This document shows, one piece after another, positions 40,829 through 63,841 of a DNA stretch of 64,000 bases. Under the pieces are notes generated by a model. That model saw only the letters and a list, made by a program, of their open reading frames with translations. It searched no databases and had not been told where the DNA came from. Positions within the stretch are counted from its first letter, which is position 1, and each line of letters starts with the position of its first letter. This DNA comes from a virus, in IMG/VR virus record IMGVR_UViG_3300021364_003460, positions 1 through 64,000 of that record. One strand, given 5' to 3'. The position numbers and the translations under genes are program-made.

Positions 40829-43800
40829 ATGCAGACATTACAAGTAAATACTTTTAAAGCTTACTTTGACTTGCTCTCTCCTAAGTATGTAGATTGGGAA
40901 TTTTATAGTAAATATTTAGACAAAGAGCCTCCTTTTGGTGAATTAGGAGTAATAGTATTTTTAAGAACTTACAGTAGATTTATTGAACAATTAGGTAGAA
41001 GAGAATACTGGAGAGAAGTATGTTTAAGAGTCGTTGAGTACAGCCTGTCTTTAGATAAAGTAACTCCAGTTGAATTAAAAAAAGAAGAAGCTAAAAAGTT
41101 ATTTGATATGATGTTTAATCTTAGAGGATTTCCTGCTGGAAGGACTCTATGGATTGGCAACACTAAGATTACTGAAACAAATGGAACAGCAAATTTTAAC
41201 TGTTCTGCTGCTACTACAGATAGTATTTCTAAGTTTGCAGAATGTTTTTATATGTTACTAGTAGGTGCAGGATATGGCTTTAGTGTAGAAGACAAATACA
41301 TTAGTAACCTGCCCACTTTTTATCCTGGTAAAACTTTAGTCAATAAAGAGTATAACTACAACAAATACTTAAAAGTAGATGATACAGAGATTGAGTTTTA
41401 TAAAGATAATAAATTTCTGTCTTCAGTGGTTTATACAGAAAAGTCTTTATGTATAGAAGAAGATAATAAGTATTTATCTGTACCAGAAGACTGCAATAAA
41501 GTTAATATTCTGGTAGGAGACAGCCGTGTTGGTTGGGTTAACACTCTAAGACTTCTACTTACTTTACATACTTATTCAAATATAAAAGTTGTTGAAGTAG
41601 ATTATGATTATGTTAGACCAGAAGGTGCAATCTTAAAAACATTTGGAGGCAGGTCTAGTGGTCACACTGCTCTAGAGACTTTACTAAATAGAGTTGTAGA
41701 AATTATAAATGAGTTATCTAAACCTGGAAAATTAAGTAGCGTTCAATGTTTAGATATTAAAAATTCTATTGGTATAGCTGTAGTAGTTGGTGGAGTACGT
41801 AGGTCAAGTGAGTTAGTATTAGGAGATTTATTTGACACTAATTTTATTAATTCTAAAAAAGACTTGTGGAGTGATGAAAGTTTAGCTAATAAAAGAGCTA
41901 CTAGAGTTATGAGTAATAACTCAGTAACCTTATATGAAAACCCTGGTTTAGAATACTTTAAACAATTAATGGAAAGTGTTAGAACATCAGGTGAACCAGG
42001 AGTATATAGCATAGGTAACGCTCAAAAAAGAGCAGCTAACAGAAAACTTACCAACCCTTGCTTTACTGGTAGTATGAAACTTCTTACTAGTGAAGGTTAT
42101 GTTGAATTTAAAGAACTAGAAGATAAAGAAGTAGAAGTAATTAATAAAGAAGGTAATATTACTAAAAGTAAAGTTTGGTCTTCTGGAATTAAAGAGTGCA
42201 TTGAATTAAGACTTTCTAATAAAGAGACTCTACAATGCACTCCTGATCATATATGGTTAACAAATGAAGGAGAAATACAAGCTAAAGATTTAAAGAATAA
42301 ACAATTAGTACCTTTTCTAAAAGAACCTGATTTAGATATTAATTATACAAGATATGGTTTTATTCAGGGAGATGGCACTTTAAATAGACTTACTTCAGTT
42401 ATACACAAAGGGTTGGAAGTAAACATAGGATATAAAGATGGAGACATTTATTCTTTATTTGAAGGTTTAAATTATACAAATAAGAGTTATAGAGTTATTT
42501 ATTTAAATGACTCTAAAGACCTAGAGGTGATTAAATCTTTAGGATATCAAGCAGTTAAATTACCTCAAAGAACTTTACCAGATAAATATCCATCTTTCTC
42601 TTTCAAAGAGAAAGCTTCCTTTTTAAAAGGTTGCTATTCAGCAAATGGTTCTGTTCTTAGCTGTGGTAGAGTCACTTATAAAGCAACTTGTAAAGAATTA
42701 TTAGAACAAATTCAAGAATCTTTATATTTAGACTTTGGAATTGAATCTTATATAACTACTAATAAGTCTAAAGAAGTGCAGTTTAGTAATGGTGTTTATA
42801 CCTGTAGAGAAAGTTATGATTTAAATGTAAATAAGTTTACTGATAAAGTTAACTTCTTTAATGAAATTGGTTTTGTTCAAAGATATAAAGTTGAATTATT
42901 AGCTAAACACTTATTAAAATCTGCACCTTATATAACTTCTATTAAAAATATTGGTGAACATAAAGTTTATGATTTTACTGAACCTGAAACTCATTGGGGT
43001 GTAGTAAATCGCTTTATAGCTCATAATTGCGGTGAAATCCTCTTAGACGACAGAGGAGTGTGCAACTTAACTGAAGCTAATGTATTAGCTCATGTTAAAG
43101 AAGATAACACTTTTGATTGGGAAGTTTGGAAAGATACTATTACTTGGGTGACTAGAATGGGATCTAGAATAACCTTAGTTGATATGTGGCATCCTAAATG
43201 GCAAGAAACTCAGCAAAGAGATAGGTTACTTGGAGTATCAATGACAGGTATAGTAGAAGCTTTTGATGCTCTTAATTGGTCAGAAGAAGACATTACTTAC
43301 TTTTATAAAAAGACTCAAAGTATTGTTGATCTTGTTGCAGATAACTATCATAACTATCTAGGTATTCCAAAAAGTTTACTTAAAACTACTATCAAACCCA
43401 GTGGTTCATTGTCGCAATTGCCTACAGTTTCATCTGGTATACATAGACCTTATGCGCCTTATTACTTAAGAAGAATTAGAGTTAGTAAAACAGATCCTTT
43501 AGCTAAAACACTATATGATTTAGGATTAATTCCTGTTCCAGAAAACAGTCAAGGTGATGACTTGTTTGGAGAATACTGTAACACTTGGGTATTTACTTTC
43601 CCAGTTAAAACTAAAGCTAAATTAAATTCAATTGATGAACCAGCTTTAGTTCAGTTAGAAAGATATAAACAAGTAATGCAGCATTATGTTCAACACAACT
43701 GTTCTATTACTGTATCTGTTGCTGAACATGAATGGGAAGAAGTAGCTCAATGGTTGTATGAAAATTATGATTACTATATTGGAATAGCATTCTTGCCTAG

Positions 43801-44008
43801 ATTTGATCCATTAGATAAAGATGGGAAGGTTCTATATCCTAACTTACCTTATCAAACTTCAAATGAAAAAGAATACTTAGAACTTAAAGATAATACTCCC
43901 AATTTAACAGAAGGAGAATTAATTGAATTGTTAACTAAGTATGAAAAACAATATGAAGAATTAGATTTAGGTTCTGATTGTGCCTCTGGAGCTTGCCCCG
44001 TGCGCTGA
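40829..44008 (+). CDS. nrdJ: class II (B12-dependent) ribonucleotide reductase with intein
   Basis: RTYSR, PAGRTLW, FNCS, GGVRRS, NP[intein]CGEI, CNLTE, TIKPSG, C-terminal CASGACPVR. Confidence 0.93.
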   Translation: MQTLQVNTFKAYFDLLSPKYVDWEFYSKYLDKEPPFGELGVIVFLRTYSRFIEQLGRREYWREVCLRVVEYSLSLDKVTPVELKKEEAKKLFDMMFNLRGFPAGRTLWIGNTKITETNGTANFNCSAATTDSISKFAECFYMLLVGAGYGFSVEDKYISNLPTFYPGKTLVNKEYNYNKYLKVDDTEIEFYKDNKFLSSVVYTEKSLCIEEDNKYLSVPEDCNKVNILVGDSRVGWVNTLRLLLTLHTYSNIKVVEVDYDYVRPEGAILKTFGGRSSGHTALETLLNRVVEIINELSKPGKLSSVQCLDIKNSIGIAVVVGGVRRSSELVLGDLFDTNFINSKKDLWSDESLANKRATRVMSNNSVTLYENPGLEYFKQLMESVRTSGEPGVYSIGNAQKRAANRKLTNPCFTGSMKLLTSEGYVEFKELEDKEVEVINKEGNITKSKVWSSGIKECIELRLSNKETLQCTPDHIWLTNEGEIQAKDLKNKQLVPFLKEPDLDINYTRYGFIQGDGTLNRLTSVIHKGLEVNIGYKDGDIYSLFEGLNYTNKSYRVIYLNDSKDLEVIKSLGYQAVKLPQRTLPDKYPSFSFKEKASFLKGCYSANGSVLSCGRVTYKATCKELLEQIQESLYLDFGIESYITTNKSKEVQFSNGVYTCRESYDLNVNKFTDKVNFFNEIGFVQRYKVELLAKHLLKSAPYITSIKNIGEHKVYDFTEPETHWGVVNRFIAHNCGEILLDDRGVCNLTEANVLAHVKEDNTFDWEVWKDTITWVTRMGSRITLVDMWHPKWQETQQRDRLLGVSMTGIVEAFDALNWSEEDITYFYKKTQSIVDLVADNYHNYLGIPKSLLKTTIKPSGSLSQLPTVSSGIHRPYAPYYLRRIRVSKTDPLAKTLYDLGLIPVPENSQGDDLFGEYCNTWVFTFPVKTKAKLNSIDEPALVQLERYKQVMQHYVQHNCSITVSVAEHEWEEVAQWLYENYDYYIGIAFLPRFDPLDKDGKVLYPNLPYQTSNEKEYLELKDNTPNLTEGELIELLTKYEKQYEELDLGSDCASGACPVR
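42059..43027 (+). mobile_element. 323-aa intein with LAGLIDADG homing endonuclease
   Basis: Starts CFTGSMKLLT, block B CTPDH, YGFIQGDG and FLKGCYSANGS, ends VYDF...FIAHN; the +1 residue is the Cys of NPCGE. Confidence 0.92.
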
Positions 44009-47390: not shown

Positions 47391-48647
47391 ATGGCATTTT
47401 TAAGTATTGAAAGTAGCAATCCAAAGTTCAGTTACATTATTAATAAGAATCCTAGTAACCCTGCTATAGCTAAACCTATTAGGCAAGGTACTGCTATTGG
47501 GTGGTTTGCTAATGAACAGAAGTATTGTGTTAGGTTTGTAGACCCTCCTCAAAAGATGTCTTACAACAAAGCTGAGTATGAATACCTTGATGTGACAGCT
47601 TTGAGTTCACCAGCAGCTTACAGTAATCTTATTAGAGATTTCTTTAATGGATTGTTAAAAAAAGAAAGTGAGTTTGATGTAATTGAGCATGACTTTCATA
47701 AAATAGAATTAGGATTTATTAAATGTAGTAAAAGAAACCTTGAACACTTTACTAAGTTCTTTCCACAAGTTACCTATATAGAACTAGCTAAAAATACTTA
47801 TCAAGTAACCTTTTTTGATAAAAAATTAAGTTCTCTTAGAAAGCTACTTCATTTAACTAATCTATTCTGTATCTTCATGATGGTAGCTGATGATGACTTC
47901 TATGTTGACATTAATGAAGATGTTATCAAAAAGTATCTAGTTTCATTACAAGTTATAAAAGTTCCATACTATATAGCTAACCTATTCAAAATACAGTTTC
48001 TCAAAACTAAAGCTCTGTTTACTAAGTTTGCACCTACCTTACAAGAAGCCTGCACTGAAGAAGTTACCTTTGAGTTTGGTACTGTATTAGATGCTAGAAA
48101 GAGGTGGATTGAAAGTAACCTTTCTTTTAAGAACAATATAGTAGACATTGGTGCAGGAGAAGACTTTAACTACGCTTACCTGTCTAGAAACATTAAAGGC
48201 ATCTATTACCCAGTAGATAGAGATGAAGAAGCTAGAAAGTCTATTACTAGAAAGATTGAGTATAAGAAGTTTGATAAGGTAGCTGAACCTTTAGCTGACT
48301 GGAATGAAATTAAGGAACTATTAGATAGTGACACTGAAGTTATTTTAACTGAGATACTTGAACATAATAGTTTGAAGGAAGCTAGAGCTTTGTTAACAGA
48401 GGTCTTAAGTCATCCACAAGTTAAACGTTTACTTATAACCTTACCTTGGATGCCTTTCAACAAATACTATTTATTAGATACAGAGTTTAGGCATGATGAC
48501 CACAAATGGGAAGCTGATAATGAAGTATTAACTAAACTTTATTATGTTGTCAGATCAGAAAAGAAATATAAAGTTGCAGAAGCTTTTATAGGGGATTTAA
48601 TTTATGGAATATCTCCAACAGTAGGAATAATTATTGAGAAGGTGTAA
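47391..48647 (+). CDS. hen1: Hen1 3'-terminal RNA 2'-O-methyltransferase
   Basis: N-terminal FSYIINKNP (cf. GYLLHKHP); SAM motif VDIGAGE; metal ligands EILEH and FRHDDHKWE; SPT near the end; ATG 47391 (track start 47352). Confidence 0.88.
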   Translation: MAFLSIESSNPKFSYIINKNPSNPAIAKPIRQGTAIGWFANEQKYCVRFVDPPQKMSYNKAEYEYLDVTALSSPAAYSNLIRDFFNGLLKKESEFDVIEHDFHKIELGFIKCSKRNLEHFTKFFPQVTYIELAKNTYQVTFFDKKLSSLRKLLHLTNLFCIFMMVADDDFYVDINEDVIKKYLVSLQVIKVPYYIANLFKIQFLKTKALFTKFAPTLQEACTEEVTFEFGTVLDARKRWIESNLSFKNNIVDIGAGEDFNYAYLSRNIKGIYYPVDRDEEARKSITRKIEYKKFDKVAEPLADWNEIKELLDSDTEVILTEILEHNSLKEARALLTEVLSHPQVKRLLITLPWMPFNKYYLLDTEFRHDDHKWEADNEVLTKLYYVVRSEKKYKVAEAFIGDLIYGISPTVGIIIEKV

Positions 48648-48651
48648 TTAC

Positions 48652-51291
48652 ATGACAATTAATATTCAAATACCCATGCACACTGTAGTCACTATGGTGG
48701 CTCCTTCATGCTCAGGTAAATCTCTACTAGTAGAAACATTAGTAAATCAATTAGAAAGAACTTATCAATTAGGTTTAAGTAAACTCAACTTCCATGTAAT
48801 CTCTTCAGATGATATACGTAGAGAGCTTATTGGGGAAGACTTACATAAACATGACAATGAAATGCTTTATGCTTCTGGGGCTGCATTTGATTTACTATTT
48901 TGTAAGTTGAGAAACCTACTTCAGTTTCCTCTTAGTTTAAAGAATGCAGTAGTGTTTGTAGATACTACTGGTTTAAGTAAAGAGTTTAGAGACCAGGTAA
49001 ATAAAGTAGCTGAGAGATATGGTTATAATACAGCAGCCATTGTATTAGACTACAAAGAATATCAAGACTACTTTAAGTTAGCTGAAAATGATGAGAGAGT
49101 AGATAAGTCAGTTGTTAGCAATCATGTAAAAAGACTCAGAACTAAAACTCTACCTCAAATGAGGAGGAAAGACTACTCAGCAGGTATCTTTAAAATTAAA
49201 CAGCTAGATTACCTTTGGCACAACGTTGAAATTCAGTTAACTAATGCAAATGAATATATCAACTGTAGGCTACCTATTAAAACTGCTGAAGGGGAAAGGA
49301 TAGAGTATACTTGTTTAGGGGATAGTCATGGTTGTTATGATGAGGTAATACAAGTATTAACTAAAGCTGGGTTTACTATTGAAGAGGGGTTAATTAAAAA
49401 TCCTGGCAACAAAAGAATTGTTTGTTTAGATGACTACATTGATAAAGGAAGTAAGCAAAAAGAGCTTATTCAATTCTTCTATAACAACCAAGATTACATT
49501 TACCATGTTTTAGCTAATCATGAGGATTTTGTTGTAAGGTACTTTACTGGAGATATCAAACCAGATAAAGACTCTTTACAATACTTTGATTCTATTAGCT
49601 GGCTTAAAGATACTCCTGAGTTGGAAGAATTAAAATGGCTACATTCTCAAGCTAAACCCTTCTTAATTCACCCTGACTTTATCTGTACTCACTCTCCTTG
49701 TAAACTAAAACACTTAGGTAAACTAGATAAGGAATCTAAGAGAGCTCAACTTAAGCATAGACTACCTTCTATCTATGGTAAAGACTTTGATACTGAGGAA
49801 GAATACAAAAATGTACTAGAAACTAATTTAAATTGGTTAAAGGAGCAAGCTGTAGCTAACTTTCCTTTTATCTTCTCTGGTCATCTTTCATTCAGTAATG
49901 TTGTCAGACTAGGTAGCCAAGTAATGTTAGATACTGGAGCAGTCTATGGGAATAAACTTACCGCTTGTACTGTAAAAGGAAGAAAGCTAGACTTTACTCA
50001 AGTTCAAGCTAAAGAAGCATACTACCCTATTAAGTATCTAACAACTATCTTTGATACTAAAGATAAAGTTAACTTAAATAGTCTAGACTCTAGGGAACAG
50101 AGAAGAATTAAGAGAGCTTTAGGAGAGAAACCAATCAACTGGCTATCAGGAACTATGTCACCTAGTGCTAGTAATGATTCTCAGTTAGAACCTATTGAAA
50201 CAGCATTAGAATACTATAAATCTAAAGGTGTTACTGACCTAGTAATGCAATGTAAAGAAATGGGCAGTAATGCTTCCTTCTATTGGCTGCCTAATCCAGA
50301 AGACTGCTACATGGTTAGTAGAAATGGCTATCTTATTAATCAAGTAGACATTAAACCTATAGTAGATAAGTTCCACTCTCTAATTGCAGAAAGGTTTCCT
50401 GATGCTACTCAAGTAATAGTTTTTGGAGAATTGAAACCTTGGTCTGCTTTAGGTAAAGGTTTAATTGACCACCACTTCATCCCTATCTACTCAGGGATGA
50501 AAACTGAGTTAGAGTTCTCTAAAACTAATGGTTTTGATACAGCTTTCTCTAGTTTGTTATCTCAAGCTAAAGAAGAGTTTGCTCATGACAGAGGTAAGTT
50601 ATCTAAAGCTGAGTTAAGGGCTAAGTATGGAGATGCTAAAGTAGAGTGGTATAACAGTGTACTACAAGCTGCTAAGTATGTTAATCCTGTAGATATTGAT
50701 TTAGCTGAGGTAGAAGCCTACAAGGAAGAGTTAGATGGGTATACTCAAGATAGTGAGTTAGATTTCCAACCTTTCCAAGTATTAAAGATTGAAAGAGGTG
50801 ATAAAGTAGAAGTGTTACCTTTTGATAACTATGAAGGGTTTAAACTATTTAACTCTAATCAAATTATAAAATTAGATTTAAATTCTAAGGAAGGTTATGA
50901 TACTGAAGTTTTGTATGCTAGATATGTGTACAAAAACTGGGTATCTGCTCCACAAGACTTCTTTGGTTATACTAAGTTAGAAGGTGTAGTTATTAAACCT
51001 TTAGACCCTAAGCTGACTAATGTAGCTCCTTATATTAAAGTAAGAAATCCTCAGTACCTTAAGTTAGTGTATGGGCCAACTTACAATTTAGAACCTACCT
51101 ATAGTAAACTAGTTAAATCTAAAAGGATTAGTAGAAAGATTAAGTCTTCCATTAATGAATGGCAGCTAGGTTTAGAAATGTTAGGTATTCATTCTAGTCA
51201 GATGACATTAGATAACTCTAAAGCAGTAGACTTAATGATTAAGTTTATTGCAGAAGAAAGGAAAGTGGAAGTGTTAGATCCAAGGTTGTAA
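48652..51291 (+). CDS. pnkp: polynucleotide kinase-phosphatase-ligase (bacterial Pnkp type)
   Basis: P-loop APSCSGKS, SSDDIR; GDSHGC, DYIDKG, NHED, LDTGAVYGNKLTA; ligase KEMGS, EGVVIKP, KVRNPQYLKLVYG; terminal DPRL. Confidence 0.93.
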   Translation: MTINIQIPMHTVVTMVAPSCSGKSLLVETLVNQLERTYQLGLSKLNFHVISSDDIRRELIGEDLHKHDNEMLYASGAAFDLLFCKLRNLLQFPLSLKNAVVFVDTTGLSKEFRDQVNKVAERYGYNTAAIVLDYKEYQDYFKLAENDERVDKSVVSNHVKRLRTKTLPQMRRKDYSAGIFKIKQLDYLWHNVEIQLTNANEYINCRLPIKTAEGERIEYTCLGDSHGCYDEVIQVLTKAGFTIEEGLIKNPGNKRIVCLDDYIDKGSKQKELIQFFYNNQDYIYHVLANHEDFVVRYFTGDIKPDKDSLQYFDSISWLKDTPELEELKWLHSQAKPFLIHPDFICTHSPCKLKHLGKLDKESKRAQLKHRLPSIYGKDFDTEEEYKNVLETNLNWLKEQAVANFPFIFSGHLSFSNVVRLGSQVMLDTGAVYGNKLTACTVKGRKLDFTQVQAKEAYYPIKYLTTIFDTKDKVNLNSLDSREQRRIKRALGEKPINWLSGTMSPSASNDSQLEPIETALEYYKSKGVTDLVMQCKEMGSNASFYWLPNPEDCYMVSRNGYLINQVDIKPIVDKFHSLIAERFPDATQVIVFGELKPWSALGKGLIDHHFIPIYSGMKTELEFSKTNGFDTAFSSLLSQAKEEFAHDRGKLSKAELRAKYGDAKVEWYNSVLQAAKYVNPVDIDLAEVEAYKEELDGYTQDSELDFQPFQVLKIERGDKVEVLPFDNYEGFKLFNSNQIIKLDLNSKEGYDTEVLYARYVYKNWVSAPQDFFGYTKLEGVVIKPLDPKLTNVAPYIKVRNPQYLKLVYGPTYNLEPTYSKLVKSKRISRKIKSSINEWQLGLEMLGIHSSQMTLDNSKAVDLMIKFIAEERKVEVLDPRL

Positions 51292-52010
51292 ATTATGGAA
51301 ACTTATTATGTCATGTACTTTTATGAAAATGAAGAAGTGCATTCTGTAATAGAATTACAGGCTTCTTATTTACACTCTGATTTGCTAAGTAAAATAGAAG
51401 CAAATGCACCAATGGAAGATTACTATTATCAGGTAGTCACAAAAAAAGTATATGAAGACTATAATTCTAGCAAACCAGAAACCTAAGTACAGTTCTCTTC
51501 ACTTTACTACTCAGTACAAATTTAGTAATCTAATAATATAAACTTTAACTTAACTATATATCTATGAAACTAAATACTACTCCTTACATTGTTCAAGAAC
51601 TCTTAGATAAAGGTTACATTAGTTCTGACAATAAAGATAAAGTAGCTGAAGTGCTTGCTAATGAAGGTAAGCTTAGTAAAGAGTACCAGGTTAAAAGTAA
51701 GATTCTAAACTATCTAGAATACTTCTCTGGTTCTCTAGTTAAAGAAGTAGATGTTAATTCAATTTACTCTAATATCAAAGCTAAATTTAAAGAAGATGCT
51801 GAACTTGAAAATGGTGATATTAGATACCAAGTATTAGATTATCTAAAGAAAGAAAAGAAGTTAAGTCATTATGCTGAATTGAGTGAAACATTAACTGATT
51901 CATTAAAATTAACTACTAATGTAGTTGAAATGTTAAAGCCTTTTCAGGTAGTAGGATATAGGAAAATATTGTAGTAGACTGACCACCTAACTCAAGTTAA
52001 CTAGTCCATT

Positions 52011-58405: not shown

Positions 58406-59437
58406 ATGTCTAACAAAGGATTAAGTAAACACACTTTAAAAAGCTACAGTAAAAAGAAACCTCAGTTACGTAGGTATATTAAACAAGGTTATGAAGAACA
58501 TACTTTGTTACCTAATAGAAGTATTAGACATAGAAAATGGGATAGAAGAAATCCTTATAAAATAGTTGAAAAGTATTTAGAGTCTAAAGTAGGTTGCAAC
58601 TGGAATGATGTTTACTCAGAACTTAGAAGTAAAATAGGATATTTTAAAGTAGAAGATTATATCAAATCTTTTACTATTAAAAAATATAAAAGACTAACTT
58701 GGAGTAGATATGGTAAAGTTTACTATTCTATAGATAAAAAAATTAAAGGTATTAGACCAGGTGAATTTTATATAGACTCAAATAACTTACTTCAACAAGT
58801 ACCCAAAAAGAGAAAGATAAATAAAGTAAAAAAACCTATAGTTATCAAGATAGATGATAACCATGAGTATAGATATTTAGAGAATAAAGCTAGTTGGTAT
58901 TACTATTACAAAGATATTACTAAAAAAGTAAAGAAAAGATTAGTAGTAGACAGTAAAGGCAAACCTGTTTTTTACAATAGACTTAACTGTAAAATATTAG
59001 ACCCTATGTTGTTAGGTACTCCTATGTTTACTTATCAGACTGTAGAAAAGGTAACTTGGGAAAGAGATCCTATAGATACGTTTGGTAATTATCATAGATT
59101 AAAACTTAGAAATTTAGGAGTGTTCTTATGATAGTAAAAAGTGGTCAAGATGATTATGACTGGCATTAGAGAAAAACTCTACTCTGAAATCTTTGTTGAG
59201 TTACCTATATTAGCTAAAGAACAAAAGTGGGCTATAACTGCTGACCACTGTATAGGAAGAATAATTTATGACTCTGTAATGAGTTGTAAGTGGAGTAAGG
59301 TAGTTAAGTCACCTTTCTATAAGAATGCTGAGTTGAGTAAAGTTGAGGAAGCTCTATTAGTGTGCGATCGCCTAAAGGTGGAAGGTAAAATATTAGCTGA
59401 CAAGTTGAATGAAGAGAGTTTGAGATATAGAAAATGA
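58406..59437 (+). other. two conserved hypothetical ORFs (58406-59131 basic; 59141-59437)
   Basis: YLESKVGCNWNDVYSE; DHCIGRIIYD...W...P.YK...LNEESLRYR patterns; function unknown. Confidence 0.6.
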
Positions 59438-60531
59438 TAGATATTTACAGCTTAAATGAGATACCTAAAAAGTTTAATAAACAAGGACTCTGTTATTTTG
59501 GTAAGCTGACTAAAGAAGAGTTGCCTTTAGATTGTGAGCTAGAGTATGTTCCAGGCTATACCAATATATACCTAAACTCATTTGAAGAAGACTTTGTGCA
59601 GTTTGAGTACATGGATGGATTTAGTCCTAACCTTAATAAGAAGCTACACTTAGGTCATCTTAGTAACTTTATCTTTGCTAAAACTTTTCAATCACTGGGA
59701 GTTAGTAAACAAACTATTGCTATCTATGGAGATACCTTAAAAGGAACTGACTACACCAATAAAAATCAGATAATGTTTGACTACAAAGTAGATAAAGAAT
59801 ACTTTGCTAGTCAGATGACACTTAGTGATGACAGTATATTAAGTAATGGTAAGGGTAAGTATGAAGGTGCTAAAGTCTGGCAAGATAATGTAATGATTAA
59901 GTCCAATGGAGGTACTACATACTTCTATCAAGATGTAGCTCTAAGACAGCATCTAAAGTTACCAACTCTATACTTAACTGGACAAGAACAAGTAAATCAC
60001 TTTGCTGAACTTAAAAAGTATGATGGCAATGTTACTCATATAGGATTAGGTTTAGTCAACCTTAATGGCAGCAAGATGAGTTCTAGAGAAGGTAATGTTG
60101 TCTTTATGGAAGAAGTTGTAAGTAAACTAAATGAAGGTTTTAATAACTTAAAGTTAACTTACAATGTGCTGGCTGGTAGTCTTATTAAAAGTAATCCCAC
60201 TACTAATAAGAATATAAACATGACTGACTTAATGGATGTAAAGAAATCATTAGGTCTGTATGTGAGCTATTCACTGGCTAGATTAGATAAGCTACCTATT
60301 GAGTTTGAAAAGGTAGAAATTAGCCCTTTAGTTAAGTATCTGTATGCTAAGTCTAAAATTAAGTTGAATCCTTCTATATTGTTCAATAAGTTAGTAGAGG
60401 TGTGTCAAGCTTTCAATGGAGACTATGAAAGTAAAAGTAGTCAGGAGAATGTTGAGTTGTATTCTCAATATAAGGTAGATGCGGAGTATATGTTTGATAA
60501 GTTAGGGTTGTATAAGGTTGAGAAGGTGTAG
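59434..60531 (+). CDS. argS: miniature arginyl-tRNA-synthetase-like protein
   Basis: FSPNLNKKLHLGHL (HIGH), KSNGGTTYFYQD, YLTGQEQ..HF, KMSSREG, YVSYSLARL. Confidence 0.78.
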   Translation: MIDIYSLNEIPKKFNKQGLCYFGKLTKEELPLDCELEYVPGYTNIYLNSFEEDFVQFEYMDGFSPNLNKKLHLGHLSNFIFAKTFQSLGVSKQTIAIYGDTLKGTDYTNKNQIMFDYKVDKEYFASQMTLSDDSILSNGKGKYEGAKVWQDNVMIKSNGGTTYFYQDVALRQHLKLPTLYLTGQEQVNHFAELKKYDGNVTHIGLGLVNLNGSKMSSREGNVVFMEEVVSKLNEGFNNLKLTYNVLAGSLIKSNPTTNKNINMTDLMDVKKSLGLYVSYSLARLDKLPIEFEKVEISPLVKYLYAKSKIKLNPSILFNKLVEVCQAFNGDYESKSSQENVELYSQYKVDAEYMFDKLGLYKVEKV

Positions 60532-62740: not shown

Positions 62741-63841
62741 ATGATTAACCTTTACCTTAAAGACAGTTTAACCAACCAACTAAAACTGTTTACTCCTATT
62801 CAACCTAACCATGTAAACATATATGCTTGTGGAATAACCCCTTATGATTTCTCTCATATAGGTCATGCTAGATCAGCTATTACATGGGATATTTTAATCA
62901 GGTATTTAAAGTACCTTGGTTATTCAGTCAACTACATTAACAACGTAACTGACATAGATGACAAGATTATTGAGAAAGCAAAAGTTAATAATGCTCCTGC
63001 TTTAGAAGTTAGTGATTACTACTTTAAAGAATATCAGAAAGAGTTAGCAGCTTTAAATGTGATACCTGCTGATAACTACCCTAAAGTTAGTGAAAATATA
63101 CCTCATATTATTAAGTTTATTCAAGAGTTAATTGCTAAAGAGGCAGCTTATGTGGCAGGAGATGGAGTTTACTTTAACCTCAACTCAGCAGCTAACTACG
63201 GTAAATTATCTAACAGAGATAGTCAAAGTTGCAGCTATCAAGACTTTGCTTTATGGAAATTAACTAAAGATAATGGCTGGGATAGTCTTTGGGGTTATGG
63301 TAGACCCGGCTGGCATATTGAGTGTTCTACATTTATAAAAATTTATATAGGAGATACAGTAGATATACATTGTGGAGGTAGTGATTTAGTATTTCCACAT
63401 CATGAGAATGAAATAGCACAGTCAGAAACCTTAACTGGTAAACCTTTAGCAAACTATTGGTTACATAATGGTATGGTTAAAATTGATGGTAAAAAGATGT
63501 CTAAGTCATTAGGTAATACTATTACTATCAAAGATGTGTTAGCTAAATATCATCCTCACACTCTTAGAATGTTATTCCTACAAACTGGGTATCACAAACC
63601 AGTTAACATTACAGAAGAGTCTTTAAAGGCTGCTGAAAATGCTTATCTTAAATTAGAGAAATCTGCTAACTTATCTCATACTTATATACTATCTGAAGAA
63701 AATCCTTACCTTAAAAAGTTTGAAGAATATATGTCAGACGACTTAAATACAGCTAAGGTATCTGCACTAATGTTTAAGTTAGCTAAAGAAAAAAAGTATT
63801 CTATTTTAAAACAAATAATGAATTTAGTTGGATTACTATGA
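62741..63841 (+). CDS. cysS: cysteinyl-tRNA synthetase, C-terminally short
   Basis: YACGITPYD, HIGH, DIDDKII, DFALWK, GRPGWHIECS, HCGGSDLVFPHHENE, KMSKSLGN, DDLNT. Confidence 0.93.
   Translation: MINLYLKDSLTNQLKLFTPIQPNHVNIYACGITPYDFSHIGHARSAITWDILIRYLKYLGYSVNYINNVTDIDDKIIEKAKVNNAPALEVSDYYFKEYQKELAALNVIPADNYPKVSENIPHIIKFIQELIAKEAAYVAGDGVYFNLNSAANYGKLSNRDSQSCSYQDFALWKLTKDNGWDSLWGYGRPGWHIECSTFIKIYIGDTVDIHCGGSDLVFPHHENEIAQSETLTGKPLANYWLHNGMVKIDGKKMSKSLGNTITIKDVLAKYHPHTLRMLFLQTGYHKPVNITEESLKAAENAYLKLEKSANLSHTYILSEENPYLKKFEEYMSDDLNTAKVSALMFKLAKEKKYSILKQIMNLVGLL

Follow-up and report, generated by a model that had tools for sequence, protein, structure and literature searches.

A predicted RNA repair cassette of non-classical Hen1-Pnkp type in a large, probably cyanobacterial phage

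We analyzed a window of 64,000 nucleotides (positions 1 to 64,000 of the IMG/VR virus record IMGVR_UViG_3300021364_003460) and report a cassette of two adjacent genes, hen1 and pnkp. On balance, we read it as a working two-gene RNA repair cassette which would serve a large, probably cyanobacterial phage in counter-defence. By sequence comparison the pair belongs to a separate, non-classical lineage and not to the classical Anabaena/Clostridium Pnkp-Hen1: its ligase and Hen1 most resemble their counterparts in the Capnocytophaga Pnkp1-Rnl-Hen1 complex, and its healing domains, the kinase and the metallophosphatase, are classical. Both the architecture and the predicted chemistry correspond to a known system, and its occurrence in phages is already on record. 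The novelty implied by an earlier note on this DNA was overstated, as a PNKP together with a Hen1 homologue was reported for phage XacN1 in 2018 (PMC5852040). We therefore regard the find as solid but moderate, a cassette of a little-studied type.

Gene layout

Reading of the open reading frames places hen1 at 47391-48647 (+ strand, ATG at 47391, stop codon TAA at 48645-48647, 418 amino acids) and pnkp at 48652-51291 (+ strand, ATG at 48652, stop codon ending at 51291, 879 amino acids), with a spacer of 4 nt (48648-48651) between them. A TTG further upstream (47352) was considered as the start of hen1 and rejected, because every homologue starts with MAFL. The homologues of pnkp start at the position matching ATG 48652 in the alignment. 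A Shine-Dalgarno-like GAGAAGGTG is located at 48636-48644 within the 3' end of hen1, 7 nt upstream of the pnkp ATG (9 nt for its AAGG core), and its position inside hen1 is consistent with translational coupling of the two genes. Past the pnkp stop follows an ORF of 63 amino acids, possibly co-transcribed with hen1 and pnkp, which has no counterpart adjoining the cassette at any other locus compared. Scanning for promoters and terminators gave no enrichment compared to shuffled sequences. The features are:

47391..48647, + strand: hen1, RNA 3'-terminal ribose 2'-O-methyltransferase with N-terminal ligase-activating domain (ORF, Pfam, 4XRP_C match, AF2/Foldseek)
47400..48047, + strand: Hen1 N-terminal (ligase-activating) domain, residues 4-219 (PF22032 positions 2-219 of 222, E 3e-50)
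48066..48644, + strand: Hen1 methyltransferase domain, residues about 226-418 (invariant motifs, structural match)
48636..48651, + strand: Shine-Dalgarno-like GAGAAGGTG, hen1 stop codon and 4-nt spacer (sequence reading)
48652..51291, + strand: pnkp, trifunctional polynucleotide kinase / 2',3'-phosphatase / RNA ligase, 879 amino acids (ORF, Pfam, homologues)
48652..49251, + strand: 5'-OH polynucleotide kinase domain, residues 1 to about 200 (AAA_33, invariant motifs)
49303..50025, + strand: binuclear metallophosphoesterase (2',3'-cyclic phosphodiesterase/phosphatase) domain, residues about 218-458 (Metallophos, 4J6O match)
50128..51288, + strand: Rnl-type ATP-dependent RNA ligase domain, residues 493-879 (Capnocytophaga Rnl match, invariant motifs)
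51295..51486, + strand: 63-amino-acid ORF, beginning 4 nt (3 bases between) past the pnkp stop (ORF)

Domain organization of Hen1 and Pnkp

The earlier note had described a complete Hen1-Pnkp pair, 4 nt apart, with kinase, metallophosphatase and ligase motifs, and this description is borne out by the open reading frames, the Pfam matches and the invariant catalytic residues. Judging from their E-values the Pfam matches of both proteins are not due to chance.

Hen1 matches the whole Pfam model Hen1_N (171 bits, E 3e-50), and its only sequence match in the PDB is to Capnocytophaga Hen1 (4XRP_C, 91 bits, full-length). The AF2 model (pLDDT 86) resembles the Hen1 of 4XRP over its full length with a Foldseek TM of 0.83, and the Hen1 methyltransferase domains of Anabaena and C. 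thermocellum with a TM of 0.77-0.79 (per target length). By the 4XRP_C match and the TM of 0.83 the protein is recognized as a Hen1 of the Capnocytophaga type, a distant type defined by an identity of about 20% to AvaHen1. The suggestion that its N-terminal half is divergent and may hold a new ligase-activating region is not supported, in view of the Hen1_N score and the structural similarity to Capnocytophaga Hen1. The methyltransferase half gave no match to any general Pfam methyltransferase model. Among 18 aligned homologues both the SAM loop (D252, G254, G256) and the metal and RNA-end motifs (E321, E324, H325, R367, H368, D370, H371, E374) are invariant. Residues 55-68 are conserved (S57, E64, Y65, L66) and modelled in the monomer with a pLDDT of less than 50; they may represent a loop contacting the partner protein.

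Pnkp is a single ORF of 879 amino acids without internal stop, its ligase not being a separate protein, and matches the Pfam models AAA_33 (kinase, residues 12-136), Metallophos (220-411) and PNKP_ligase. All of its catalytic residues are invariant in the alignment of classical and non-classical Pnkp, including the P-loop of the kinase (G22, K23) followed by D53, R56 and R113. No match to HAD_PNKP was obtained; the phosphatase is a calcineurin-like metallophosphoesterase of the CthPnkp type (4J6O, 48.6 bits). Nine residues are essential in the CthPnkp phosphatase, namely D187, H189, D233, R237, N263, H264, H323, H376 and D392 (PMC3675462), and eight of them are found here as D224, H226, D261, N289, H290, H347, H411 and D427. 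The ninth, the phosphate-binding Arg237, corresponds to Lys265, and a lysine occupies this position throughout the non-classical clade. In CthPnkp the change R237K retains the cyclic phosphodiesterase activity, with a higher kcat and a higher Km (PMC3675462). The ligase domain (493-879) aligns continuously with residues 17-394 of Capnocytophaga Rnl (4XRU_B/4XRP_B) at 127-129 bits; the CthPnkp ligase scores about 35 bits. Its motif I (K535-x-MGS), R557, G559, E593, P596, W597, E777, G778, K782, K796 and R798 are invariant, as is the C-terminal DPRL.

One could argue that such a pair modifies RNA ends and does not repair breaks: certain RNAs of phage or host would be stabilised or inactivated by Hen1 through methylation of their 3' ends, and Pnkp would do no more than prepare these ends or would ligate for some other purpose, e.g. 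in the processing of phage transcripts. The eukaryotic HEN1 homologues are stand-alone 3'-end methylases, the AF2 model also matches plant HEN1 (3HTX), and the modules recombine freely among phages (forms with the ligase only, fusions of Hen1 to a T4-type Pnkp, split forms). However, the Hen1 reported here retains the full ligase-activating N-terminal domain, and the two genes, with 4 nt between them, have a ribosome-binding site of the kind expected for coupling. Joint action is further indicated by the flanks fetched for 23 IMG/VR loci, five isolate phages and 80 bacterial loci, in which a Pnkp-type ligase is missing near Hen1 at two IMG/VR loci only (L009 and L023). We therefore consider end modification improbable and keep to the reading as a repair cassette.

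A separate lineage

The classical Pnkp-Hen1 equivalogs of NCBIfam (TIGR04075 and TIGR04074) have curated cut-offs of 340 bits for Hen1 and 750 bits for Pnkp. Both proteins fail them, Hen1 with 25.4 bits and Pnkp with 154 bits, so that the assignment to the Anabaena/C. thermocellum type made by the earlier note gives way to a separate lineage. This is in agreement with the ligase domain, for which blastp yields 49-58 bits to four classical Pnkp versus 130-230 bits to non-classical sequences. In the ligase tree the SH-aLRT support for the split between the classical clade and the rest is 100%, and the Capnocytophaga Rnl clade, recognized through P0125 (497 bits to 4XRP_B), is nested inside the non-classical clade. 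The sequence from the window falls into a separate deep branch consisting of metagenomic sequences only.

The non-classical Hen1/Rnl-type family comprises a few hundred clusters at 50% identity across large phages, Bacillales and Bacteroidota; at least 80 Bacillales genomes have it on the chromosome, and about 20 large IMG/VR phage contigs carry it. A survey of phage databases for the operon, which the earlier note had proposed, recovered the same cassette, hen1 followed by a kinase-phosphatase-ligase gene, at about 18 of the 23 IMG/VR loci, on viral contigs of 66-530 kb. Relatives of Hen1 and Pnkp occur together on the same contigs and their divergence is matched. No gene is conserved alongside the cassette across the loci compared, and the context therefore gives no hint of a target.

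[quoted passage not shown] It differs in being phage-borne, in a Pnkp identity of just 23-25%, in a longer Rnl-type insertion of about 40 additional residues near 640-690 of the ligase, and in a phosphatase motif DKG instead of DRG. Chan, Zhou and Huang are said to have found in 2009 that the Anabaena Pnkp-Hen1 repairs RNA in vitro with 2'-O-methylation.

The best match to a solved structure for both the ligase domain and Hen1 is the Pnkp1-Rnl-Hen1 heterohexamer of Capnocytophaga gingivalis (4XRP/4XRU), with which the ligase shares its Rnl-type sequence including the insertion domain. In Capnocytophaga, however, the ligase is a separate protein, whereas here it is fused within Pnkp; healing there is done by a T4-type Pnkp1, whose phosphatase is of the HAD family, and not by a classical P-loop kinase with a metallophosphoesterase; and hen1 is distant from rnl-pnkp1 instead of 4 nt away from its partner. 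The Capnocytophaga complex performs RNA repair with 2'-O-methylation in vitro (Wang, Selvadurai and Huang 2015, PMC4411300).

Isolate phages have a Hen1 of non-classical lineage as well, with 26-27% identity over the full length (Xanthomonas XacN1, ORF197-199, PMC5852040; Vibrio RYC and vB_VpaM_sm033; Stenotrophomonas CM1 and RAS14), and in these phages, too, it adjoins an Rnl-type ligase. In contrast to the window, the ligase is a stand-alone gene in all three phages examined (XacN1, RYC and sm033), XacN1 has an additional separate small kinase gene, and in the Vibrio phages Hen1 is fused to a T4-type kinase-HAD Pnkp (HAD_PNKP match). No GenBank phage record covered at least 80% of the three-domain Pnkp. 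Architecture and gene order are kept at 80 of 80 retained loci of Paenibacillus, Brevibacillus, Cohnella and Gottfriedia, where pnkp is annotated as 'metallophosphoesterase'. These Bacillales pairs are below the TIGR04074 cut-off too (65-88 bits), and their Hen1 has its best match in Capnocytophaga Hen1 (136 bits). The one locus examined, in Paenibacillus chitinolyticus, differs from the window in being chromosomal and non-prophage, with a WYL-domain regulator upstream.

Phage origin of the cassette

The carrier is probably a large lake phage infecting cyanobacteria. Its record of 190,865 bp is rated 100% complete by CheckV, and the phage location given in the earlier note was upheld by this rating, the phage-gene flanks, an independent contig and the gene order of a relative. 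One must keep in mind that the record is classed as 'provirus' in IMG/VR, that a contig of 221,872 bp instead of 190,865 bp is listed for the same protein in a protein collection, and that the nearest named relatives are bacterial, all of which would suit host DNA brought in by misassembly, by a mis-trimmed provirus edge or as a recent non-functional passenger. We regard such an origin as very improbable. In the record 47 kb precede the cassette, which is set between a tail-collar fibre gene and PhoH, with RecA and NblA also among the flanking genes. An independent Logan assembly yielded a contig of 192,247 bp with identical genes and gene order, including NblA. A 76% relative (L127) retains the order tail-fibre gene, hen1, pnkp. 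Compared with this relative dN/dS is about 0.22 for hen1 and about 0.22 for the 5' part of pnkp; by this measure both genes are under purifying selection. The GC content of the cassette is 33.2% versus 31.4% for the genome, and its GC and GC3 resemble those of neighbouring phage genes. Finally, identity to the nearest bacterial homologues is no more than 31-35%, and their source is Bacillales rather than cyanobacteria. We conclude that the DNA of the cassette is phage and not host.

Proposed function

The following mechanism is modelled on the characterised homologues. The starting point would be an RNA cut by a transesterifying ribonuclease, with a 2',3'-cyclic phosphate on one side of the break and a 5'-OH on the other; a host tRNA is the most plausible substrate. 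The metallophosphatase domain of Pnkp would open the cyclic phosphate and then remove it, Hen1 would methylate the 2'-OH of the new 3'-terminal nucleotide, and the kinase domain would phosphorylate the 5'-OH end. The ligase domain, with the N-terminal domain of Hen1 as activator, could then seal the break via Lys535-AMP, and the 2'-O-methyl group at the repaired junction would make it resistant to re-cutting by the same kind of nuclease.

By analogy with known systems, a likely role of the cassette is counter-defence, aimed at the anticodon nucleases, ribotoxins or abortive-infection systems of RNase type in the host. No tRNA genes were found in the 190,865-bp genome; the phage would therefore depend on the host tRNA pool, which is why the cassette is read as counter-defence. 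A functional precedent, also cited in PMC12776372, is phage T4, whose Pnkp and Rnl1 repair tRNA-Lys cleaved by PrrC. The two have in common a phage-encoded heal-and-seal of RNA with 2',3'-cyclic phosphate and 5'-OH ends, but T4 has a HAD-type phosphatase and an Rnl1-family ligase where the window has a Pnkp/Rnl-type ligase, and it lacks a methylation step and hence protection from re-cutting.

The cassette might instead serve the general upkeep of the translation apparatus, in which any RNA nicked during infection is repaired, whether the nick stems from RNases of host toxin-antitoxin systems, from stress or from host-shutoff nucleases that the phage itself makes, with no particular defence system as the selective agent. 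The sequence by itself hardly allows this reading and counter-defence, which overlap, to be told apart. In Bacillales the non-classical family sits on chromosomes and cannot be anti-defence, and since these closest bacterial relatives are found in ordinary contexts the family is not intrinsically anti-defence. The phage also holds two further RNA-ligase ORFs (PF09414), a sign of investment in RNA repair that suits the counter-defence reading as well; PF09511 (Rnl1) had no match in the genome, but this search had none in any of its control genomes either. In addition, Wang et al. argue from the open ring architecture and the broad substrate range for a possibly generic RNA repair (PMC4411300). 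Against this stands the costly 2'-O-methylation, which pays mainly versus an enzyme re-cutting the same site. Moreover, T4 Pnkp/Rnl1 versus PrrC, to our knowledge the only phage RNA repair system understood by experiment, is a counter-defence. We hence consider general upkeep rather unlikely, though a more serious contender than end modification, and favor counter-defence.

Significance

The non-classical branch, which takes in phages, Bacillales (at least 80 genomes) and the Rnl and Hen1 of Capnocytophaga, has one characterised member, and the compact, intact pair reported here is a convenient candidate for biochemistry. Its fused form bridges two characterised architectures and could help to model how Hen1 activates the ligase in the Pnkp-Hen1 heterotetramer, for which no structure was known as of Wang et al. 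2015 (PMC4411300). In the literature searched we found no experimental test of any phage Hen1-Pnkp, and an 'immunising' tRNA strategy is so far not known from any phage. We tentatively suggest, as a possibility that goes well beyond the reading of this one cassette, a large phage-trafficked family of the non-classical Hen1/Rnl type in which a swap of the healing module led to the Capnocytophaga three-protein complex, together with an 'immunising' counter-defence in a cyanophage devoid of tRNA genes. If true, a host tRNA that an anticodon nuclease or other RNase defence had cut would be resealed and, beyond that, be permanently uncuttable. The textbook case of phage repair of defence-cut host tRNA is T4 Pnkp/Rnl1, where the repaired tRNA can be cut again; a phage Hen1-Pnkp whose methyl mark blocks re-cutting would be a stronger counter-defence than that of T4.

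The two genes and their borders

Both open reading frames were re-derived on the + strand, and the coordinates of the earlier note, as well as its statement that pnkp follows hen1 "4 nt later", proved to be exact:

47391 (ATG) to 48645-48647 (TAA), + strand, hen1, ORF of 418 aa
48652 (ATG) to a stop ending at 51291, + strand, pnkp, ORF of 879 aa
52011-52793, + strand, PhoH-like ATPase, 0.7 kb 3' of pnkp

The hen1 stop and the pnkp ATG are separated by a spacer of 4 nt. Longer TTG-initiated starts proposed by the ORF finder were rejected because the Hen1 homologues all start at the methionine of MAFL..., and a longer pnkp start was rejected since close Pnkp homologues start level with ATG 48652. 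The 3' end of hen1 contains GAGAAGGTG (48636-48644), 7 nt upstream of the pnkp ATG (9 nt for its AAGG core), a position that would fit translational coupling of the two genes. The promoter and terminator scan returned fewer promoter-like sites than were found in shuffled sequence, and no terminator was seen 3' of pnkp.

When 12 flanking ORFs were checked beside other cassette loci, none recurred except PhoH near the module of phage XacN1, and the cassette is therefore regarded as two genes only. In XacN1 the PhoH gene (L002:8712-9203; L-numbers denote fetched loci) lies on the opposite strand approximately 3.5 kb from the Hen1-Rnl module, and this shared neighbour may be a coincidence.

Phage origin and selection

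The window makes up the first 64 kb of an IMG/VR record of 190,865 bp, which is rated 100% complete by CheckV and is classed as "provirus" in IMG/VR. An identical Hen1 occurs on an independently assembled contig of 192,247 bp with the same neighbours including NblA, a gene associated with cyanophages. The flanks are phage-like (intein-bearing class II ribonucleotide reductase, tail-collar fibre, PhoH, RecA), the tail-collar fibre gene being located directly upstream of hen1 on the other strand. The 76%-identical relative L127, in which alone synteny was compared, has o144, the tail fibre, hen1 and pnkp arranged in the same way. A misassembled host contig, a possibility raised in the earlier note, is contradicted by the independent contig, the synteny in L127, the phage flanks and the CheckV result, and we give small weight to an artefact as explanation of the cassette.

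Nei-Gojobori comparison with L127 gave a dN of 0.149 and a dS of 0.68 (ratio 0.22) for hen1, and a dN of 0.215 and a dS of 0.99 (ratio 0.22) for the first 175 codons of pnkp. The GC content of the cassette is 33.2% vs 31.4% for the genome, and PhoH has a similar GC3. The cassette is real, intact and selectively maintained in a cyanophage-like virus. No close relative in culture was found: the nearest isolate judged by RecA shows 35% identity. The ribonucleotide reductase (40829-44008, + strand, 1059 aa) is B12-dependent and carries, at residues ~426-733, an intein that includes a LAGLIDADG homing-endonuclease domain.

Catalytic residues of Pnkp and Hen1

Pfam assigns an AAA_33 kinase (12-136), a Metallophos domain (220-411) and PNKP_ligase to Pnkp. 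Our alignment of Pnkp included 11 non-classical relatives as well as four classical (Anabaena/Clostridium-type) Pnkp, the latter drawn from genomes in which Hen1 scores above or just short of the NCBIfam cut-off. Invariant residues of the kinase are G22 and K23 in the P-loop, D53, R56 and R113, and those of the phosphatase are D224, H226, D261, H290, H347, H411 and D427, with N289 nearly invariant. The ligase keeps motif I (K535-x-M537-G538-S539, with K535 as the adenylylation lysine) together with R557, G559, E593, P596, W597, E777, G778, K782, K796, R798 and a C-terminal DPRL. In Clostridium thermocellum Pnkp (CthPnkp) the phosphatase residues found to be essential are Asp187, His189, Asp233, Arg237, Asn263, His264, His323, His376 and Asp392 (PMC3675462), and eight of these nine are matched here. 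The exception, Arg237, corresponds to Lys265, and lysine is found throughout the non-classical clade; the CthPnkp mutant R237K is still active as a cyclic phosphodiesterase, with a higher kcat and a higher Km (PMC3675462).

In Hen1 the SAM-binding loop (D252, G254, G256) and the motifs E321-x-x-E324-H325 and R367-H368-x-D370-H371-x-x-E374 are invariant among 18 homologues down to 29% identity. The earlier note regarded the N-terminal half as divergent and as possibly carrying a new ligase-activating region. This was not supported: that half matches Hen1_N strongly and completely, covering positions 2-219 of the 222 in the model (171 bits, E 3e-50). The unusual half is instead the C-terminal methyltransferase, for which Pfam finds no methyltransferase match and TIGR04074, the NCBIfam Hen1 equivalog, gives 25 bits only. 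Hen1 was also modelled with AlphaFold2 (mean pLDDT 86, pTM 0.81). In Foldseek the model aligned along its full length with the Hen1 of Capnocytophaga gingivalis (4XRP; TM 0.82-0.83), and it matched plant HEN1 and the methyltransferase domains of Anabaena and C. thermocellum Hen1 at TM 0.77-0.79 per target length. Motifs and predicted fold together identify the C-terminal half as a genuine Hen1 methyltransferase. Conservation is high at residues 55-68 (S57, E64, Y65, L66), yet their pLDDT is <50 in the monomer model, and this loop may contact a partner.

Both the complete Hen1 and the three-domain Pnkp claimed by the earlier note are therefore present with their catalytic residues kept. Sequence comparison thereby shows the domain content and the conservation of its chemistry.

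A lineage between two characterized systems

The assignment to the Anabaena/C. thermocellum type made in the earlier note did not hold, as both proteins score far under the equivalog thresholds of NCBIfam (25 bits for Hen1, where 340 are required, and 154 bits for Pnkp, where 750 are required). In PDB searches the ligase domain (493-879) matched C. gingivalis Rnl almost from end to end with 127-129 bits, vs approximately 35 bits over 70 residues for the C. thermocellum Pnkp ligase, and the single sequence match of Hen1 was C. gingivalis Hen1, over the full length. The phosphatase is a classical metallophosphoesterase (CthPnkp 4J6O, 48.6 bits), whereas T4 Pnkp and Capnocytophaga Pnkp1 possess a HAD-type phosphatase. 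From these domain-wise matches we conclude that the protein combines classical-style healing domains with a fused Rnl-type ligase: the healing style and the fusion in one chain are shared with classical Pnkp, the Rnl-type ligase and the type of Hen1 partner with Capnocytophaga. The Capnocytophaga system was described as a rare "hybrid" in 10 species (Wang et al., PMC4411300), with an insertion domain and a Hen1 N-terminal domain markedly unlike the classical ones (PMC4411300). Its Rnl-type features are common to our proteins, and the insertion in the ligase exceeds that of classical Pnkp by ~40 residues. Gene order was dropped as a distinctive trait: pnkp then hen1 had been expected for the classical type, and four classical loci also have hen1 then pnkp.

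In a ligase tree of 69 rows (quick IQ-TREE, SH-aLRT support only), long branches and a support of 100% set classical Pnkp apart from all other rows. The clade of stand-alone Rnl containing P0125 (a protein representative of Capnocytophaga type, 497 bits to 4XRP_B) nests inside the non-classical group beside a viral contig. Viral rows are scattered, and well-supported branches force at least four label changes. The clade of our ligase is well supported (99) and consists of metagenomic sequences only; since several rows have long branches, the deep branching order of the non-classical group is uncertain. These comparisons place the cassette in a non-classical branch bridging the two characterized systems. 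In the same clade, one metagenomic contig of 31,047 bp (P0110 and P0070) encodes a Hen1 of 58% identity and, in place of a fused Pnkp, a 345-aa protein that consists of the ligase alone and shares 51% identity with our ligase domain. Unless that gene call is incomplete, fusion or splitting may occur even among close relatives.

Occurrence in phages and bacteria

Searching 50,697 phage records with the cassette by blastn gave no match, and a single-protein query of IMG/VR gave no relative. When IMG/VR was queried with a Hen1 alignment, 23 loci were recovered, on contigs 66-530 kb long, and approximately 18 of these loci have the same arrangement of hen1 then kinase-phosphatase-ligase. Among the rest are loci whose phosphatase domain carries inserts, loci with extra sequence separating the two genes, loci with only a ligase as partner, and loci with the genes in reversed order. 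The inserts in L014 (8002-10144, ~1.4 kb) and L017 (7968-8915, ~0.3 kb) are positioned directly after the first metal-binding motif of the phosphatase, and L008 has 1.8 kb between hen1 and pnkp; each of the three may represent an intein, an intron or the insertion of a homing endonuclease.

Hen1 relatives are present in five of the 50,697 GenBank phage records, namely XacN1, the Vibrio phages RYC and vB_VpaM_sm033, and the Stenotrophomonas phages CM1 and RAS14. A three-domain Pnkp covered to at least 80% was found in none of the 50,697, a set that may lack records closely similar to this phage genome, with the window, classical and Paenibacillus proteins as queries, and in all three isolates examined (XacN1, RYC, sm033) the ligase is a stand-alone Rnl-type gene. 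For Xanthomonas phage XacN1, a "PNKP" and a Hen1 homologue were reported in 2018 (PMC5852040). The protein in question (ORF197, L002:3992-5206, AP018399.1, annotated "metallophosphoesterase") aligns to Pnkp residues 477-879 only; no kinase or phosphatase part was matched and no phosphatase partner identified nearby, so that by sequence this "PNKP" is the ligase alone. A 164-aa AAA_33 kinase (ORF199) is located upstream of hen1 (ORF198), two genes upstream of the ligase. The Vibrio phages encode Hen1 fusions:

L003:5143-7296 (RYC, AP014858.1), 717 aa, annotated "polynucleotide kinase"
L004:5215-7395 (vB_VpaM_sm033, OV032902.1), 726 aa, annotated "polynucleotide kinase"

Both have four domains (Hen1_N, methyltransferase, AAA_33 kinase and HAD_PNKP phosphatase) and are directly preceded by a stand-alone Rnl-type ligase annotated as hypothetical, an arrangement equivalent to the Capnocytophaga Pnkp1-Rnl-Hen1 system condensed into two genes. 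Further four-domain fusions may be represented by P0182, P0229, P0265 and P0292 (715-821 aa) from the search of Hen1 representatives. Putative Pnkp1-Rnl-Hen1 clusters were also reported for Borg elements (PMC11208441). Given XacN1 and the other recorded occurrences, phage carriage of Hen1 modules is therefore not new in itself.

Exhaustive searching of 1.84 billion cluster representatives with Hen1 (HMMER) returned 619, 488 and 255 clusters at E ≤1e-3, ≤1e-10 and ≤1e-30. Scanning one genome per bacterial species yielded at least 249 loci. The best 80 of these all belong to Paenibacillus, Brevibacillus, Cohnella, Gottfriedia and allies (31-35% identity), and all 80 have hen1 then kinase-phosphatase-ligase. 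Recent capture from a cyanobacterial host was rejected, since these best 80 of at least 249 loci are all from Bacillales at such identities and include no cyanobacterium. The Hen1 of these Bacillales loci likewise score only 65-88 bits against TIGR04074, and they match Capnocytophaga Hen1 best. The pair of Paenibacillus chitinolyticus sits among ordinary chromosomal genes, with one regulator nearby that, to judge from this one locus, may control the non-classical system in Bacillales:

L078:4814-6145 (NZ_CP173427.1), - strand, HTH-WYL-WCX regulator, ~0.85 kb upstream of hen1-pnkp, divergent

Potential function

By analogy with the homologues, we infer a repair-and-methylation pathway in which the phosphatase would act first, followed by 2'-O-methylation, the kinase and finally sealing activated by Hen1. 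The outcome would be an RNA junction that can no longer be cleaved. Target and selective agent can be suggested more tentatively. We consider it fairly probable that the cassette serves counter-defence through repair and methyl protection. Phage T4 provides a precedent of phage RNA repair, which is an argument for this proposal. The 190,865-bp genome contains no tRNA genes as candidate repair substrates, and translation of the phage genes hence depends entirely on host tRNAs, which likewise speaks for counter-defence. Outside the window there are two more PF09414 RNA_ligase ORFs:

G000 (whole phage genome) 96400-96888 (L126:979-2019), 346 aa, with a PHA02142 OB-fold domain
G000 183237-183692 (L125:1411-2022), 203 aa

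Including Pnkp, this tRNA-less genome thus encodes three ATP-dependent RNA-ligase-type enzymes. The two additional proteins show an investment in RNA end-joining and also argue for counter-defence. No RtcB was found in the phage genome, and a search for Rnl1 gave no match there, nor in any of its control genomes.

Two arguments count against counter-defence: Bacillales carry this family as a resident system of their chromosomes, and the neighbourhood of the cassette gives no pointer to a specific target. Generic RNA upkeep during infection is an alternative, which we regard as unlikely, and a role purely in RNA end modification receives small weight.

Two ORFs of the window resemble aminoacyl-tRNA synthetases:

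59434-60531, + strand, 365-aa ORF, faint match to the arginyl-tRNA synthetase catalytic domain (E 4.5e-5)
62741-63841, + strand, 366 aa, complete catalytic domain of a class I cysteinyl-tRNA synthetase (373 bits) and only the start of the DALR domain

In architecture and predicted chemistry the cassette corresponds to a known system. What goes beyond the first reading is the assignment to a non-classical lineage and the identity of the unusual Hen1 half. An "immunizing" phage counter-defence is an attractive and directly testable hypothesis, but phage occurrences have been recorded before.
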